DNA of 64,000 nucleotides from contig NC_042998.1 in the NCBI RefSeq assembly GCF_006345805.1, positions 122,884,001-122,948,000 of the forward strand, given 5' to 3'. Made by a program: the position numbers and the translations under genes. Origin of the DNA: Octopus sinensis. Its lineage: Eukaryota. The notes under the pieces are model-generated. The model was not told where the DNA came from and searched no databases. It was given only the letters and a program-made list of their open reading frames with translations. Within the stretch, counting starts at the first letter, position 1; each line of letters starts with the position of its first letter. Of this stretch, positions 21,081 through 63,793 are shown in pieces.

Positions 21081-21099
21081 GGATAGGATATCTCGAAGC

Positions 21100-22690
21100 T
21101 AAAAAGAAGTCAGACCGAACATTTATTCTGCATCGAATTAACAAATCGGTTTAACGGATTCGAAGTCCTTCAATCTGCTTCCTCAGATGAAGTCTGGCAA
21201 ACGGTCAAACACAATCTTCAATCCGTGATGTCCACAACACTCGGTACTACTAAGCGAAAAGACAAAGACTGGATCTCGGGCCGAACAATCAAAATTGCTG
21301 AAAAGGCGAAACAAGCTCGATGCAACCAATCCGATACCTTCAGACAACTGCGCCGTGAAGCAGCCCGTTCTGCCCGTGCTGATCGAAATAAATTCTGGTG
21401 GACGGTGGCTGAAGACATGGAACGCGCCGCATCTGCTAGGGACTCCGGTAAGCTCTACAGCCTCCTTCGATCGAGCACAAAGACAGGCTCGAGTGGTAAC
21501 GAAGCCATTTTGGACCGGAATGGTGATCCCATCACCAATCTTACTGAGCGCATCATCCGCTGGGGAGACCATTTCGCCAATCTGCTGAACCACGACCACC
21601 TTGTCTGCTTTTGCGAGCGACGCGATCCCAACCTTGTATAATTGCCAAACAACTCCCCCCACGCTTCAAGATATCCTTGCTGTTATCAGAAAGCTCAAAA
21701 ATAACAAAGCTGCCGGCGAAGGTAACATTCCTGCTGAGATCCTCAAGCATAGTGCATATATACTGGGGCCCGCGATTCATCAAGTTATCACCCGGGTTTA
21801 GGATACGGAAGCCCTCCCCCAAGACTGGAGCGACGCAATACTGGTACCTCTCTTTAAGAAAGGGGATAAACGTTGCTGCAGCAACTACCGTGGCATCTGT
21901 CTGATTGATGTTTCTACCAAAATATTTGCATGTATTCTTCTGAGATGATTCCACTCAGAACATGACTCTAGAACAAAACCAAATCAGTCTGGTTTCGAGG
22001 CTGCATCGATCAAATCTTCATCCTAAGACGAATCATCTGCTTTGTTGCGTTTGTTGCTTTTTCGTCAAGGATATATACTACGCAGATGACATTGCGATAC
22101 TTGGCGAAACATTTGCTGACGTCCAGTTTGCTATCAATGAACTCCAGCTTGTTGCAGCGCAGATTGGAATGAAAGTATGCCTCGAAGACCAAAATTCTCA
22201 CAGCCGACTTCGCCCCACCAGACAAAACACCCATTGTCCTCAATGGTGATACTCTTGAAGAGGTTGAGAGTTTCAAATACATTCGCGCCATCATTACAGC
22301 TACAGGTCAAGGTGAGGCTGACATTAAAACACGATTCGACCTTGCTCGTCAAGCCTTCAAACGACTCAATGCACAACTCCCGTCAATATCTGAGATCCGA
22401 CGCACCACCAAAGTACGGATCTACCAAGCAATAGTGCGAACGATTCTCTTTTAGGGCAGCGAGTCATGGCCGATGAGGGTGGAAGATATTAAGAGATCCT
22501 TCCATCACCTCTGTCTACGCCGCATCCTTCGTGTCTGATGGCATCACTTTGTCTCCAACAATTCGGTGCGACACCAGTGCAAAATCACCTCCCTCCGACA
22601 ATTCATCTTAACGAGACAGCTGCGTTGGCTGGGTCATGTCCTCCGACGTCAACCAGGAGAATTCATCTACGAAGCAATTGCTCCGTTAAA
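21100..22690 (+). pseudogene. RTE-clade LINE ORF2 fragment with an internal RT deletion
   Basis: WISGRTIK..ARADRNKFW, LKNNKAAGEGNIPAEILK, DWSDAILVPLFKKGDKRCCSNYRGICL, YADDI, RIYQAIVRTIL. The segment between the Q.GF motif and YADD is missing. Confidence 0.9.
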
Positions 22691-23359: not shown

Positions 23360-23570
23360 GTGACCGCGTGTGTATCGTTGGCGTTTTCATTCTCAGTTTA
23401 CCCTTCCTTGGACCTTTCCTTTTTCTATGTTTCTGACGAAGAGCTCCGCTCGAAACGTTTAATCCTCCTTCTTTCTTTTTTTTCCTGAGCGTCCAATAAC
23501 ACTATACTTATTCCACATCCTTGGGTTGTTGTGTTTTTTTGCCTTTTCATATTTGGATTAACTATATATA
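23360..23570 (+). mobile_element. PLE terminus remnant with hammerhead-like core
   Basis: CTGACGA-AGAGCTCCGCTC-GAAACGTT (23433-23459); same layout as 14583-14620. Confidence 0.6.
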
Positions 23571-23830: not shown

Positions 23831-24349
23831 TATACATATTTAATCTTAACGAAATCTTGGGCTGATGTCAGGAATATTGATACAGGTATGTATTTCTAGC
23901 ATCTCTATATCTGATGGCGAAATATCGACATCTACCTTTCAATTGGATCCTTGGCTAGTTGCCGACCTGGTGTATGATTTTTCGGGTGTTTTAACACCCA
24001 GTGTTATTAGGGAGTCTCTCTAAACCCTATCCCACAGTAAATTCGGCAAATGTACAAACCACATAGATGTGTATGTACAATCGATAATGTTTATATATAT
24101 ATGTCTTCATATAATTCGGTTGCTTTCTTCCAAGGAATCTAGTGCTCTTAGCTTAGATTTTCTTGGGGCTACCCACATTGGAGCAGTCTCGAATTAACCA
24201 GCTGAAACCACTTAGATAATCTGGAAGTCGACTGAGGATAGAAAACTTCGAATGACCCGTCCTTGTTTTTTCCTATCCTTTTCTGTATCGTCTAACTGTC
24301 CGGATATTTTCTTGTCGCCTGTTACATTCTTCCATTTTTTGTTGTCTTA

Positions 24350-24438
<89 letters not shown>

Positions 24439-24653
24439 TATATATATATATATTTGAGTAATTGAATGAATTATCTTATTAAGGATAATTCGAAAGATAA
24501 CTGATACCTGGGTAGCAAATTCACATCAGAAAGAACACGGTTGAAGCTGCGTCCCTAGGGCATAGACTACGTGTCTTCGTGCGGAAATTTGTATGTTTAT
24601 TTTAAAATTATAACTATATGAAAGAATGGATTTGAACGACTAGTTAACAAATA

Positions 24654-24750
24654 TCCTTTATTCTCGACATATGTTTCGAAGGCTGCATATTCCTAATTCC
24701 GAAGGAATAAGGAGTACATTATGCAGATTTCTCATCAGGAAAATCAAGGA
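24654..24750 (-). ncRNA. Minimal type I hammerhead ribozyme (PLE pLTR)
   Basis: UCCUUGAUUUUC-CUGAUGA-GAA..CUGCAUA/UAUGCAG..UUC-GAAAC-AUAU-GUC-GAGAAUAAAGGA. 12-bp stem I with one mismatch; predicted cleavage between 24666 and 24665. Confidence 0.85.
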
Positions 24751-25305
24751 ACTTATGTCGACATCAAAATGCACAAAGACTTTTAGCTGACCGCTCTCAA
24801 GGAGCCCATGGCGATAATGAGTGTCTCTTTATAATGAGTGATGTCAGAGTGGCTGAATGTAGAAGAATCTAGAAGTTTCTAAAGGTTCAAGAGTTCAAAC
24901 GAAGTAGGAGGATGGAGGCATAAGAATAGTAAGGTGAGAGAGTGCAGGTCAAAAGAATGGCGGGTTTAAATGATTTCTTTTGTGAATGAGTGCCTGTGTG
25001 TGTGACTGTATATAACTGTCTTAATGTGTGTATGTGTGTGTCTGAATGCGTGATTGAGTTTGTGGATGGGTAGATGTCAGAAAACTGACAGCTTTGAGTT
25101 GAAAGGTCTGTATCTGTGTGTTCGATTATGTTTACTGTAGGGAACGGAAAGTAGATAGCGAAAGGGAGAAAGAATCGGGCGAGGTTAGAGGCAACGCAAG
25201 AATGGATAGTAGTAATTGGGAATATAAGAAAATCTTCTTTGACTATTGGGGTGAAATATAGCAAAACATTTTTTTTGGAAATCGAGGGCTTATCTATATT
25301 AGTTA

Positions 25306-25797
25306 CTATTTATATGAATGAAAAGCGTGTCTTTTCCAGTGTAAGCACCTGTAGGATCTTTCGACGATTGTGTTTATTAAAGGGCCTTTGGCGAACAAAA
25401 TATGAAAAAGTTCGGAATTACAGATGCCACAAAATTTTCTGCCTTTATCAAACGGGAAGGACACCGACAAAATGGACCATTCGAGCTTGAACGTAGTGTT
25501 ATTGTTCTTCAGACGCCAGACTAATTTGCTTAGCCCCGTGCTGTGTTGCTTTCTCTTACCTCTGAAAGTGGAATAATGGTTGGAGATCCTTTGGGATAAT
25601 TTAGAAGAGGTTGCACCAATATAGAAGTAAACATCGGTTCCAGAAGAGATTTTGCATTGGTAAGTGGTGTTTCTAATTTTGGAATTTTTGGATAAGAACT
25701 TTAATCTGTTGGGGTTGGTTACCGATACTAAGACAGAGTTTTTATTGCTGTGATAGGTGTAAAAATTGTTGCTGGCTTCGGCCACGATACTATTCAT
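25306..25797 (-). CDS. PLE GIY-YIG endonuclease domain (Naiad-like)
   Basis: TYQCKIS..FYIGAT..LSQRISNH..F..STGLSKLVWRLK..WSIL..CGICNSE..LIN..RCLH. Confidence 0.85.
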   Translation of the reverse strand: MNSIVAEASNNFYTYHSNKNSVLVSVTNPNRLKFLSKNSKIRNTTYQCKISSGTDVYFYIGATSSKLSQRISNHYSTFRGKRKQHSTGLSKLVWRLKNNNTTFKLEWSILSVSFPFDKGRKFCGICNSELFHILFAKGPLINTIVERSYRCLHWKRHAFHSYK

Positions 25798-25817
25798 CTT
25801 ATTATCATTACTATTAG

Positions 25818-26642
25818 TTATAATATCGTCGGCAAATTCCTGGCTATAGGAATGCTGCGATTGTTATCATCAATAATATAACTGTTATTAAGAATGCTGG
25901 TACTATTACCATTAACACCACCACTGTTAATAATCTGGTTAATGTTATTATCATTATTACTATTGCTCACGCTAATGCTGCTATGAATGTTGCTAATATC
26001 CATACTACTTCTATTATTATTATTATTGTATGTTACGTTGGAATGGGTAAGGGCGGTGTCGCTACTCATGGGTGGAGTGACCCTATTGAGCAGCTTATTA
26101 TTGTGGGAAGCTATTATCTGCGAAAGATTTTTAGTATTTGAGAATGCTATTCTTACTTTATGCGAATTTATAGTGGAGTAGTATCTAGAATTCCTAGGAA
26201 AATTCTTAGTAACGGCTTCACGGAAGTGTAAAGGGAGATTAGACCTGATTTGTCTCCCGAAAGGAATCACAAACCAAATATATTTTTTTTTGTTCTTGGA
26301 ATGGCTGAGAGTGTTGACATTTACATTAAAGGGTATATTTCTGTGTTGTAGAATGGGTTTAGGTTTACGCTGGCCTCCCCTGCTCCGTAAGTTATTATTG
26401 TAAAATATATTTGTGTCGACGTTGCTAGAGCTGAAATCACTATTTATGTTATTTATATTATTATTAGAAGTTATCTTATCTTGATGGGCAGATATTAGTT
26501 TAGGATGAGCCGGATCGATATATGATACATTATCCCTATAACCGGCCTTTGACAAGGCGGCATTATAAAATTCTGCTTTCTGTTTAAAAATGTCGACATT
26601 TGCTGATAACTTAGATAGTCTTAAGGATATATTTTTAACCAA
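25818..26642 (-). CDS. PLE RT C-terminal (thumb) region and Asn-rich linker; 5'-truncated, one frameshift before GIY-YIG
   Basis: KNISLRLSKLSANVDIF..FYNAALSKAGY; YIWFVIPF..KNFP..YYSTINSHKVRIAFSNTKNLSQIIASHNNKLL. Confidence 0.8.
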   Translation of the reverse strand: MVKNISLRLSKLSANVDIFKQKAEFYNAALSKAGYRDNVSYIDPAHPKLISAHQDKITSNNNINNINSDFSSSNVDTNIFYNNNLRSRGGQRKPKPILQHRNIPFNVNVNTLSHSKNKKKYIWFVIPFGRQIRSNLPLHFREAVTKNFPRNSRYYSTINSHKVRIAFSNTKNLSQIIASHNNKLLNRVTPPMSSDTALTHSNVTYNNNNNRSSMDISNIHSSISVSNSNNDNNINQIINSGGVNGNSTSILNNSYIIDDNNRSIPIARNLPTIL

Positions 26643-26665
26643 ATTATTTTGATGTCGACATAAGT

Positions 26666-26762
26666 TCCTTGATTTTCCTGATGAGAAATCTGCATAATGT
26701 ACTCCTTATTCCTTCGGAATTAGGAATATGCAGCCTTCGAAACATATTTCGAGAATAAAGGA
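26666..26762 (+). ncRNA. Hammerhead copy in the inverted pLTR, with GUC>UUC change
   Basis: CTGATGA at 26678; GAAACATATTTC at 26739-26750. Confidence 0.7.
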
Positions 26763-26829
26763 TATTTGTTAACTAGTCCTTCAACTCCATTCTTTCATAT
26801 ACTTATATATATATATATATATATATATA

Positions 26830-27545
26830 TTGGGTCAACCCATAAATAATGTGGTTTTTTTATGCTTCTTTTATTTTAAGATAAACAAAGTTCTTTTTTA
26901 ATCTAAAATATACTCTTCTCCATTTTCTACAATGGTCTTCCATCTAGCTGGTAAACTTGCAAGGCCCCTACTTGACGAAAAATACTCCTCAAGTGCTGTT
27001 CTGATTACAAAATTCATATTTTTTCCGTACAAATGATTTTGAAACTACAGAATAAATAGTAATCAAATAGGGCAATGTCCGGTGAATATGGTGGGTGAGG
27101 CATCGTCTCCAGCCTTTGTAATGTCATCCTCACTGTATGTGGCCGAAGATGGTCGATTTTCTTCTAGCGCTGACTCAAGCCGCTCACGTTGCTCGCTGTC
27201 GATCTCCTTTGTTATCGTTTGGTGTGGGTTTAAAAGTTCAGAGTGGACGAAACATTTCATATCCCACCAAACAGATAACAACACCTTATGTGGGTGAAGA
27301 CCTTATTTAGCCTGGGGTGCCGGTACTTCTCCTTTCCCAACACAATAATTTTGGCACTTGACATTTTTATAGATAATCTATATCTATCCAAAAAGGGTTC
27401 ATTCATGAGACGTGACAGCAAAGAAGAGCACAATTCGCTCTCTGTGCACGATTGGACTACGAAAGTTTGTGAGGAAACCACTGACCCAATCTGCCGACTT
27501 TTCCGATGGAACGCAGGTGCCGATGAATGGTTGAATGACCAAATC
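26830..27545 (-). mobile_element. Mariner (DD34D-type) transposase fragment with one TIR
   Basis: LLSVWWDMK..ELLNPHQTIT..EQRERL, then a HSPDIA/DY motif; TA|TTGGGTCAACCCATAAATAATG end. Confidence 0.85.
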
Positions 27546-36096: not shown

Positions 36097-36570
36097 GTGA
36101 GAAAGTGACACGGAGGTACAAATGTACGAAACCTAATACACCCATCATGACTACCCGTCCAATAAGGGTACACTAGGCACATGCATCACATATGCGCGTG
36201 ACATAGTGATCTCAATTGAAGATAGGGACCAGTTAGAATTTTCTTCTGGTCGAGTAGCCCATCCCATTGAAAAAGGTCCCTGAATAAGTTTTGTTTAAGG
36301 ATGATGAACGAAATATACATGCTTCCAGATGTGAATTATTCAAACCCCAAAGATTTCCTCTCAACACATAGCTATGATGCTTCCCCCATTACTTCTGCTC
36401 GTGATCAGAGATGCACATATCGTCAGTCTTTAAGGAACATGGTCAACTAGTTCAGGTCAAGAAACTGACACACAAATCTGTGGCACTGAGCAGAATATTT
36501 GCTGTAGCCCATCTTTTGTAACAAGACAAAATAGGCACATGACAGGTTAATATCAAAAGCCATGAGAGTT
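36097..36570 (-). mobile_element. Unclassified repeat 'X' between (TAA)n tracts
   Basis: Reverse complement matches 63260-63795. Confidence 0.8.
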
Positions 36571-37099: not shown

Positions 37100-38070
37100 C
37101 AGGTTAGTTTTTATTCTTGATAGAATAAGAATGATCCATATATTGTTAGCAACTTTCTAGTTTCTGTCAAGTTTCTGTATGGTGTTTTTAGTCCAATCTG
37201 ATTACCGGTACTGCTCTCGCTTGTATTGCTTCAATAACATTTTAAAAATTCAACTTTGACTCTAATATTTTCCTACTCTCTTCGTATACTTCCTGCTGGC
37301 AATTTGTTCATGTTTCATATCGTCTGCTGCCCGTATCTCCAAACACTTAACCACTGTCCTTTCTCAACCACCTTCATTGTTTGCCCATTTAGCGTTTCAC
37401 TTCCGTGGTTTCTTTCAAATCTTAATAGTTTCCTTTTCAAAATAGCGCACTTTTCAGTCCCCAATTCCATATCTACATCATTTGAGAAAATACGAACAGT
37501 ATGTACAAGACTTTTAAGCTGCTTCTCATTTTTGGCATGAAACTTTATATCATGCACAAAAAGATAATTTACCCGACCATATACTTTTCTCAAATTGCTA
37601 GCTGTTTTAACTTTTCGCAATATCAAACTCAGCGGTATTATGGCCAATACAAACTGTAATGGAGATAAGCTTTCACCTTGAAATATTCCACGTCTGATGT
37701 TCATTTTCCCATGCTCATTGTTTTACTTATCCAACTGTGCGGTACCATATCATATGCTTTCTGTAATCTAACCATGCTACATTCAGTCCTGTCAATCTGC
37801 GTCTACAATTTCTAATTGTCATTTTATCAATTAACAAGTGGTCTTTTGTTTTCGTACTTTGTCTCCTGCATTCTTTTTGTTCTTCTGGAAGTAGTTTGTT
37901 ACTTTCCTGATGATTCTATAACATTTTCGCGAAGACAGGTCATTAGCTTCAGCATAATTGATAAACAGGTTATAGGTCGAAAATTTGATGCCGAGTTACC
38001 TTCGAAGAACTCCTTGAGACATAACAACGTTGGTGTTCTACTAGCTTCAGGAGCATAGATGAAGGTAACA
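37100..38070 (-). pseudogene. R4/Dong LINE RT fragment
   Basis: ASNFRPITCLSIM; RRGIFQGESLSPLQF; YLFVHDIKF; MELGTEKCA. Confidence 0.85.
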
Positions 38071-63239: not shown

Positions 63240-63793
63240 GCCCTGATGCAGTACCAGGCAGTGGCTCTCATGGCTTCTGATCTTAACTGATTGGAAGTGT
63301 TATCATGTACATTGTTTTGTCTTGGTATAAAAGATGGGCTACAGCAAATATTCTGCTCAATACCACAGATTTGCTTGTCAGTTGTTTGACCTTAACCAGT
63401 TGAGCATGTCCCTTAGTGGCTGACGATATGTGCATCTCTGATCACGAGCAGAAGTAGTGGGGGAGCATCATGGCTATGTGTTGAGAGGGATTCTTTGGAG
63501 TTTGAATGGTTCACCTCTGGAAACATAGGTGTTTCGTTCAACATCCTAAAGCAACCCTTATTCAGGGACCGTTTGAGCAGGATGGGCTACTCAACCTGAA
63601 GAAAATTCTAACTGGGCCCCACCTGCAAGGTCATGTGCTCTTTATCTTGATATGAGATCACCATGTCGCGCACATATGGTTGTGATGCATGTGCCTGGTG
63701 TACCTTTATCAGACGGGTAGTCATGATGGGTATATTGGGCTTCGTATATTTTACCCCAGTGTCACTTTGATGGCATGAACTGCTCTCTCACTC

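Follow-up and report, generated by a model that had tools for sequence, protein, structure and literature searches.

Penelope-like elements (PLEs) with hammerhead ribozymes have been described before, and the cited sources set the background for the locus analyzed here, a PLE copy in a 64-kb stretch of the Octopus sinensis genome (C2:122884001-122948000 of 2.72 Gb), referred to below as the window. In PMC8557442, inverted 5'-truncated copies are described as frequent, with a tail of 30-40 bp at one end, and in its supplement Penelope-13_HM is listed with an inverted copy, truncated at its 5' end, and with the same hammerhead on each strand. A zinc finger in the linker has been suggested to direct microsatellite targeting, with Chlamys elements targeting microsatellites without this motif (PMC8557442). 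Dual hammerheads about 100-700 bp apart on opposite strands, with low in vitro (dimer) activity, are reported in PMC4209133. For Poseidon PAc of the green anole, in vitro work revealed that both target strands are extended and that two internal starts define the tail, and uncut, unprocessed RNA was the main template (PMC11167929). The two-ribozyme inverted layout is already published in these and related accounts (PMC8557442, PMC4209133, PMC3846280).

The inverted ribozyme pair of the octopus locus is probably an ordinary product of PLE insertion that carries an ordinary later mutation. We hold with good confidence that this PLE copy is dead and 5'-truncated, that it belongs to a Hydra-like family present in high copy number, that its inverted hammerhead likely came from the insertion itself, and that its G>T change at position 26748 is likely neutral and later. 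The paired ribozymes as such matter little, since the layout is known and the mutation is what decay predicts; as an active/inactive test pair, many other loci or a designed mutant would be equally good. For the family, we give about even chances to the view that this Hydra-derived lineage records insertion in vivo, with two primers on opposite (TA)n strands that almost always take different start sites 140-160 nt apart, an uncut hammerhead and run-off at its own transcription start, all without the linker zinc finger.

Inverted arms and their ends

The preliminary description of the window had named a young PLE with 156-bp inverted repeats differing at only three positions. The repeats are as stated: arms 24615-24770 and 26646-26801 have exactly three mismatches (24631/26785, 24637/26779, and 24668/26748), and a fourth mismatch, at 24614/26802, is included when the repeat is followed to its full 162 bp (24609-24770 / 26646-26807). 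The assignment to the PLEs is supported by an open reading frame (ORF) for reverse transcriptase (RT) and a GIY-YIG endonuclease, by the relatives, and by the layout of the pseudo-long terminal repeat (pseudo-LTR). The youth of the copy holds in a relative sense, as 43 of its 2180 sites (1.97%) depart from the family majority and its ORF is both truncated and frameshifted. Two changes per arm are private with respect to that majority (Table 1), among them the T at 26748, which the majority does not have. The inverted arm meets the truncated ORF back to back at 26645/26646 with about 2 nt of microhomology, and this junction joins RT coding sequence to the pseudo-LTR (at the equivalent of 24770); it is not a mirror junction.

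The locus was compared with a sample drawn from the first 100 of 635 genomic matches to a 30-mer, located on contigs C1, C2, and part of C3. Keeping one locus per insertion and excluding the locus under study left 78 loci, with a bias toward intact copies owing to the exact 30-mer requirement. Two arms are joined back to back in 52 of the 78. Together with the partial tandems L093, L101, and L104, this identifies the repeated part as a pseudo-LTR. The 3' ends of the arms fall into two classes, a long one near 24455 and a short one near 24609-24619 or 24586-24603, both of which enter TA-type repeats. Such repeats follow the long ends almost throughout (Table 1) and 58 of 70 short-end matches, several of the remaining 12 being long arms that run on through the site. 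Among the 52 two-armed loci, 43 combine a long with a short end, one is long/long, one is short/short, and seven are unclassed. The long/short pairing therefore holds in 43 of 45 classifiable insertions, an excess over an even split with a binomial p=3e-11. The long arm lies within or barely beyond the tail in 14 of the 43, leaving little or no shared template, and in the other 29 the arms overlap in template.

These ends suggest the following course of events. In a (TA)n tract, the endonuclease would nick the two strands, and synthesis of complementary DNA (cDNA) on element RNA, either one molecule or two, would be primed at each nick. Here one cDNA would have begun near 24455, at the distal, AU-rich site, and proceeded 2.2 kb into the RT region, while the other would have begun at the proximal site near 24609 and reached 162 nt; the two unfinished ends would then have been joined back to back by microhomology. 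With both start sites downstream of the ribozyme, a copy of it is included in every arm that exceeds 150-300 nt. In active source copies the ribozyme fold would be kept by selection and probably works as a dimer or with protein help, the template RNAs presumably staying uncut for the most part, whereas both ribozymes of this inserted copy would be decaying.

A motif common to the long and short start sites was considered and rejected: the two sites differ in register, and 210 of 500 shuffles attained the local alignment score of 24. Nor did fold prediction show the same hairpin doubled at the two sites; it placed a long bulged hairpin directly 3' of the short site and, directly 5' of the long one, a hairpin of 8 bp. 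It was also observed that whole two-armed insertions are tandemly duplicated with their flanks at L022/L051 (C1), L111, and L150, and that L111 is the sole long/long, palindromic case in the sample.

Hammerhead structure and the change at 26748

On the minus strand the core is complete, as the preliminary description had it: CUGAUGA (24738-24732) is followed by a 54-nt stem II region and by GAAAC-AUAU-GUC, with C17 at 24666 and the cut predicted where it had been placed before (Table 1). Stem I, earlier given as 12 bp, has 12 positions with 11 pairs, including one G.U, and one G.A mismatch. Of the label of a minimal, dimer-type ribozyme, the probable dimer type stands but the size does not: 54 nt separate CUGAUGA from GAAA, stem II is long and branched, stem III has 2 bp and closes on a palindromic loop of 4 nt, and the ribozyme is not small. 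Also visible in the sequence is the reported G>T at 26748 in the plus copy, which disrupts both the C-G pair of stem III and the palindrome.

Core motifs, three stems, and covariation identify a type I hammerhead within the pseudo-LTR. The 105-nt form of the ribozyme seen here is the most frequent among the fetched loci, which overlap and many of which were chosen for an intact core. Folding of both strands beats shuffled sequences (z -2.75 and -2.86). Across stems I-III of eight hand-picked related copies, eight pairs are changed on both sides, compared with a shuffle mean of 2.8, 0 of 500 shuffles reaching eight, and 0-3 in slid controls; related sequences can exceed shuffles without any structure, and the covariation thus backs the hammerhead fold without proving it. 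In a diverged relative the stem III palindrome is maintained through a double change, ACAUAUGU to ACACGUGU. Rfam gave no matches at the gathering score in the whole window.

The stem III position of 26748 is G in 115 of 115 aligned young-family arms. For the stem III duplex, predicted energies were -7.0 kcal/mol for the wild type, -3.3 for the mixed, and +0.4 for the mutant/mutant combination. The predicted dimer fold of the wild type (-58.0 kcal/mol) about equals two monomer minimum-energy folds (2 x -28.5), with values of -51.8 for the mixed and -45.6 kcal/mol for the mutant dimer, and the predicted ensemble gives the active-like monomer fold a probability of 4e-6. The motif would be a hammerhead of the dimer type, palindromic in stem III, and from the stem III energies G>T is expected to make cleavage of the plus copy weaker. 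The mutant strand in a mixed dimer retains CUGAUGA, GAAAC, and six stem III pairs beside the partner's GUC. With CUGAUGA and GAAAC retained, it would still give a core for that partner; the UUC copy may be a poor substrate and not a dead enzyme strand, and could still cut a GUC partner. According to the review PMC3138052, mismatches close to the core impair cleavage, and UUC is a permitted triplet when paired.

Probable transcription start and 5' ends of the arms

A likely internal promoter lies upstream of the ribozyme, with elements that we take to be initiator-like and CRE-like (Table 1). The octamer reads TGACGTCA in most copies and TGACATCA here, and in most copies 24818 falls 21-28 nt downstream of TGACGTCA, as judged from junction sequences. 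Of the 117 arms with a 5' end below 24900, a count that includes a few tandem duplicates, 34 have that end at 24810-24823, with 10 at 24818 itself; no arm ends at 24665. As regards hammerhead cutting of the template, the copies mostly pass through to a fixed upstream 5' end. We infer that the pile-up at 24818 reflects run-off at the transcription start in the upstream pseudo-LTR, an RT pause site at this position being the alternative. An arm of L154 taken as ending at the cut site was rejected, since it belongs to the short-end class and carries an internal deletion. The extra G that precedes the 24818 end in some junctions, as a copied cap would leave, was not used, since microhomology can explain most of them.

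Alternative explanations

The reading of an ordinary insertion followed by decay was weighed against its alternatives, and several of the points given here count against it. The inverted arm might have arisen through self-priming, or fold-back, on the antisense template and not from a second target-primed cDNA. Head-to-head repeats have been read in this way in PMC3846280, from palindromes at inverted junctions; palindromic junctions also occur in the octopus family (L111 and one event on C8300 from the genome-wide junction search), the arms share template in the 29 overlapping insertions, and the two-primer step is deduced from end positions. However, the junction at this locus is no mirror, fold-back leaves the long-plus-short rule unexplained, and the 14 insertions whose arms have little or no template in common are what two primers would give and do not fit fold-back. 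In vitro, although in another clade, both target strands were seen to be extended and two internal start sites to be used, which points the same way (PMC11167929). The long-plus-short rule and the non-overlapping arms thus favor two target-primed cDNAs for the inverted ends, and we consider fold-back unlikely. Concerning the template, junctions falling in the 9 nt up to the cut site were searched for genome-wide, with 11 matches from 10 events; four of these lie within 2 nt of the cut, compared with none of the six events around a control site. Cut RNA may therefore be used on rare occasions, in a family whose templates are mostly uncut.

The preliminary description had further proposed that the locus is a natural active/inactive pair and that a minus-strand transcript crossing it could be cut at 24666/24665. 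Neither proposal was supported. The two-armed layout is routine, and among 16 other loci that hold two whole ribozymes, both are intact in 11, one core is broken in four, and both are broken in one; decay of 1.2-2% over 13 core bases would leave exactly one broken in 25-36%. Core and neighboring bases change at similar rates in two differently chosen sets (4/500 vs 41/5079; 2/221 vs 45/2208, p=0.31), a test with six core changes and little power, and the sample was chosen by one exact 30-mer on three contigs only. In a minus-strand read-through RNA, the antisense of the plus arm comes first and would form a duplex of 153 pairs with the intact copy at a predicted -260 kcal/mol, compared with about -33 for each arm alone. 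The antisense arm is thus predicted to trap the intact ribozyme; no dimer can form within one RNA, because the two copies sit on opposite strands, and cutting of a crossing transcript appears unlikely from these models and from the rarity of the active-like monomer. A functional pair would require that the minus ribozyme cuts a host transcript and that the plus copy was inactivated by selection sparing a transcript of the other strand. The intact minus-strand core and the invariance of the stem III pair that was hit are in its favor; yet, in addition to the frequencies, rates, and folds above, Pfam detected no host exon in 112 of the 141 candidate open frames of the window, a search in which short exons would be missed and whose only hits were pieces of a transposase and of an RT and a DUF485 match under the threshold. 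We attach hardly any credence to a functional pair. Only slightly less remote is an assembly error at 26748 that would leave both ribozymes intact. Exact 30-mers around stem III number 635 with G and two with T genome-wide, the latter being this locus and an unrelated single-armed copy on C2. In runs X3 and X6, contigs of 31-45 nt at depths of 29-272 are identical to the T form over the stretch spanning 26748, with the other T copy as a possible source; T is present in two of four runs, not being among the pieces listed for X8 and X12, and no contig ties the base to the junction or flank of this locus.

Coding parts and affiliation

The ORF of copy L097 runs for 787 residues from the RT (PMGS, YRDD) through the endonuclease with no stop, and 39 protein relatives were found (E 8e-103 to 4e-45), the named ones all from Argonauta. 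Full-length copies indicate a unit of about 3.5 kb. In the partial tandems the 24608-24455 stretch leads on into the 5' leader; the ATG follows about 50 nt beyond the long end, and the ribozyme lies about 260 nt upstream of the ATG. In the window copy, Pfam recognizes GIY-YIG at E=8e-4, short of the curated cut-off, and the frame of the endonuclease end shifts relative to the upstream part near 25820-25860 (Table 1). Pfam did not recognize the RT in copies L094 and L097.

Table 1 Features of the element and its target tracts in the window.
Feature	Positions	Strand	Basis
Left (TA)n target tract	24349..24454	.	Sequence; 54/57 long 3' ends in the sample enter TA-type repeats
Tail of ~140-160 nt, in this arm only; long 3' end near 24455	24455..24608	-	Tandems L093, L101, L104
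Part of pseudo-LTR duplicated in the inverted arm; private changes 24614, 24631	24609..24770	-	
Type I hammerhead, core intact; predicted cut 24666/24665	24654..24750	-	Core motifs, stems I-III
3' untranslated region	24771..25305	-	Between ORF stop (25306) and repeat; 95-97% identity to other copies
Likely internal promoter: initiator-like TCATT with A at 24818; CRE-like octamer 24846-24839	24816..24846	-	Arm 5' ends
GIY-YIG endonuclease end of ORF, CxxC..E..N..CxH	25306..25863	-	Pfam, alignment of relatives
Asn-rich RT-endonuclease linker without CxCx5C zinc-finger motif	25640..26075	-	Alignments
RT thumb and C-terminal region; 5'-truncated at 26645, ~1.35 kb short of full unit	26076..26645	-	Full-length L093, L100, L101, L104
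Inverted short arm, ending at the family's short 3' end; private changes 26748, 26779	26646..26807	+	
Second hammerhead copy, G16.2>U at 26748 (GUC to UUC)	26666..26762	+	Sequence
Right (TA)n target tract	26808..26829	.	Sequence

Several characters place the family near the Hydra clade. DKG is changed to DKT (SDKTRN in L094 and L097), and the GIY-YIG core has no CCHH, with a single Cys in the YQC..YIG stretch and with CGICNSE..N..RCLH for the conserved E and N. Of the N-terminal RWK, RW stands at the aligned place, but L or V follows it (L094, L099, L104). The L097 linker comprises 140 residues with 22% Asn and no Cys. The CxCx5C motif is absent from all 50 family alignments in all three frames (some copies being repeated) and present in all 27 relatives with a recognizable endonuclease. 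In a quick unrooted tree of 29 rows, namely the 27 of the 39 relatives with at least 600 residues and two family copies, with neither a named Hydra element nor an outgroup, the family groups with P0001, P0002, and P0003, two of them from Argonauta, at SH-aLRT 100 among DKT/RWK/CxC relatives. P0001 and P0002 keep CxCx5C, and P0003 is partial. On these sequence characters the element is filed as a Hydra-like PLE and not as a full Hydra member, because the CxCx5C linker motif is missing.

Identity with Hydra-1_Obim was rejected after a comparison by eye, as protein start, length, and ribozyme differ. A non-LTR retrozyme, described in bioRxiv 10.64898/2026.07.22.740005 as non-coding tandem repeats with a hammerhead per unit, was likewise rejected, since the copies here are inverted and flank coding sequence. 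An older subfamily (L038, L062, L094, L139, and others) is about 85% identical and agrees in its long ends, its short ends, and the end at 24818; the base of its stem II is more fully paired.

Neighboring features

A mariner/Tc1-type fragment (26830-27310) directly follows the right (TA)n tract, with a Pfam Transposase_1 match on the minus strand at 27066-27302 (E=2e-12). To the left, a hammerhead-like core of another family (23433-23460, plus strand) consists of CTGACGA, a short stem II, and GAAAC beside a (TA)n repeat, and a hammerhead-like remnant (24230-24260; CTGAGGA ... CGAA) directly left of the (TA)n tract possibly belongs to a decayed neighboring element. Two fragments look like long interspersed elements, 37318-37722 with a Pfam RVT_1 match (E=6.5e-6) and 21087-22454 as judged by eye, with no Pfam match. 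A further inverted pair (36382-36531 / 63315-63464) is 150 nt long, 89% complementary, and 27 kb apart, and adjoins (ATT)n arrays.

Outside the window, eight unrelated hammerhead-like motifs were observed near family copies (L024:981-1085, L029:2971-3055, L060:1766-1872, L096:254-341, L114:4857-4972, L115:1275-1384, L145:260-363, and L163:3423-3530). Their stem II regions measure 30-66 nt, and their stem III loops are mostly palindromic or near-palindromic. Long-stem ribozyme families may be common in the genome and missed by short descriptors.

Comparison with known systems

With the metazoan PLE hammerheads of PMC4209133 the octopus ribozyme shares a short palindromic helix III and a proposed action as a dimer, but its 2-bp stem III, 11-pair stem I, and long stem II set it apart, and it is not minimal. 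Like Poseidon PAc, the family probably extends both target strands, has two start sites downstream of the ribozyme, and uses mostly uncut RNA as template, for all of which the octopus evidence is genomic only; in contrast to Poseidon PAc, its tail is about 140-160 nt and not 30-40, and its ribozyme lies upstream of the ATG, as given above, instead of overlapping it (PMC11167929). The Penelope of Adineta vaga resembles the octopus element in its head-to-head pseudo-LTRs with a tail on one of them, and in Asn-rich ORF inserts, one of which lies between RT and endonuclease; its inserts are several hundred residues long, and it is low-copy, with target-site duplications (PMC3846280), whereas the octopus family has hundreds of copies in (TA)n, where such duplications are unreadable.

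Also among the closest known systems is the Hydra clade, represented in PMC8557442 by Penelope-13_HM and Hydra-1_Obim. Common to both are DKT, a C-terminal GIY-YIG domain with CxxC..E..N..CxH, (TA)n targets, and a type I hammerhead with a palindromic stem III. The octopus unit of about 3.5 kb compares with usually under 3 kb, and its 54-nt stem II region with roughly 12-25 nt in the listed Hydra ribozymes (PMC8557442); about 140 Asn-rich residues replace the CxCx5C linker, and RW(L/V) stands instead of RWK. A family without the linker zinc finger that still resides in (TA)n bears on microsatellite targeting, a modest addition because PMC8557442 already notes Chlamys elements without the motif. 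In the literature covered, which included few subscription journals and neither Repbase nor Dfam, this family, a tail of 140-160 nt, or a linker-less Hydra element was not found described, and the family may already be catalogued in the sources beyond that coverage. Relative to the described systems, what is new in the octopus family is the lost linker motif together with the long tail.

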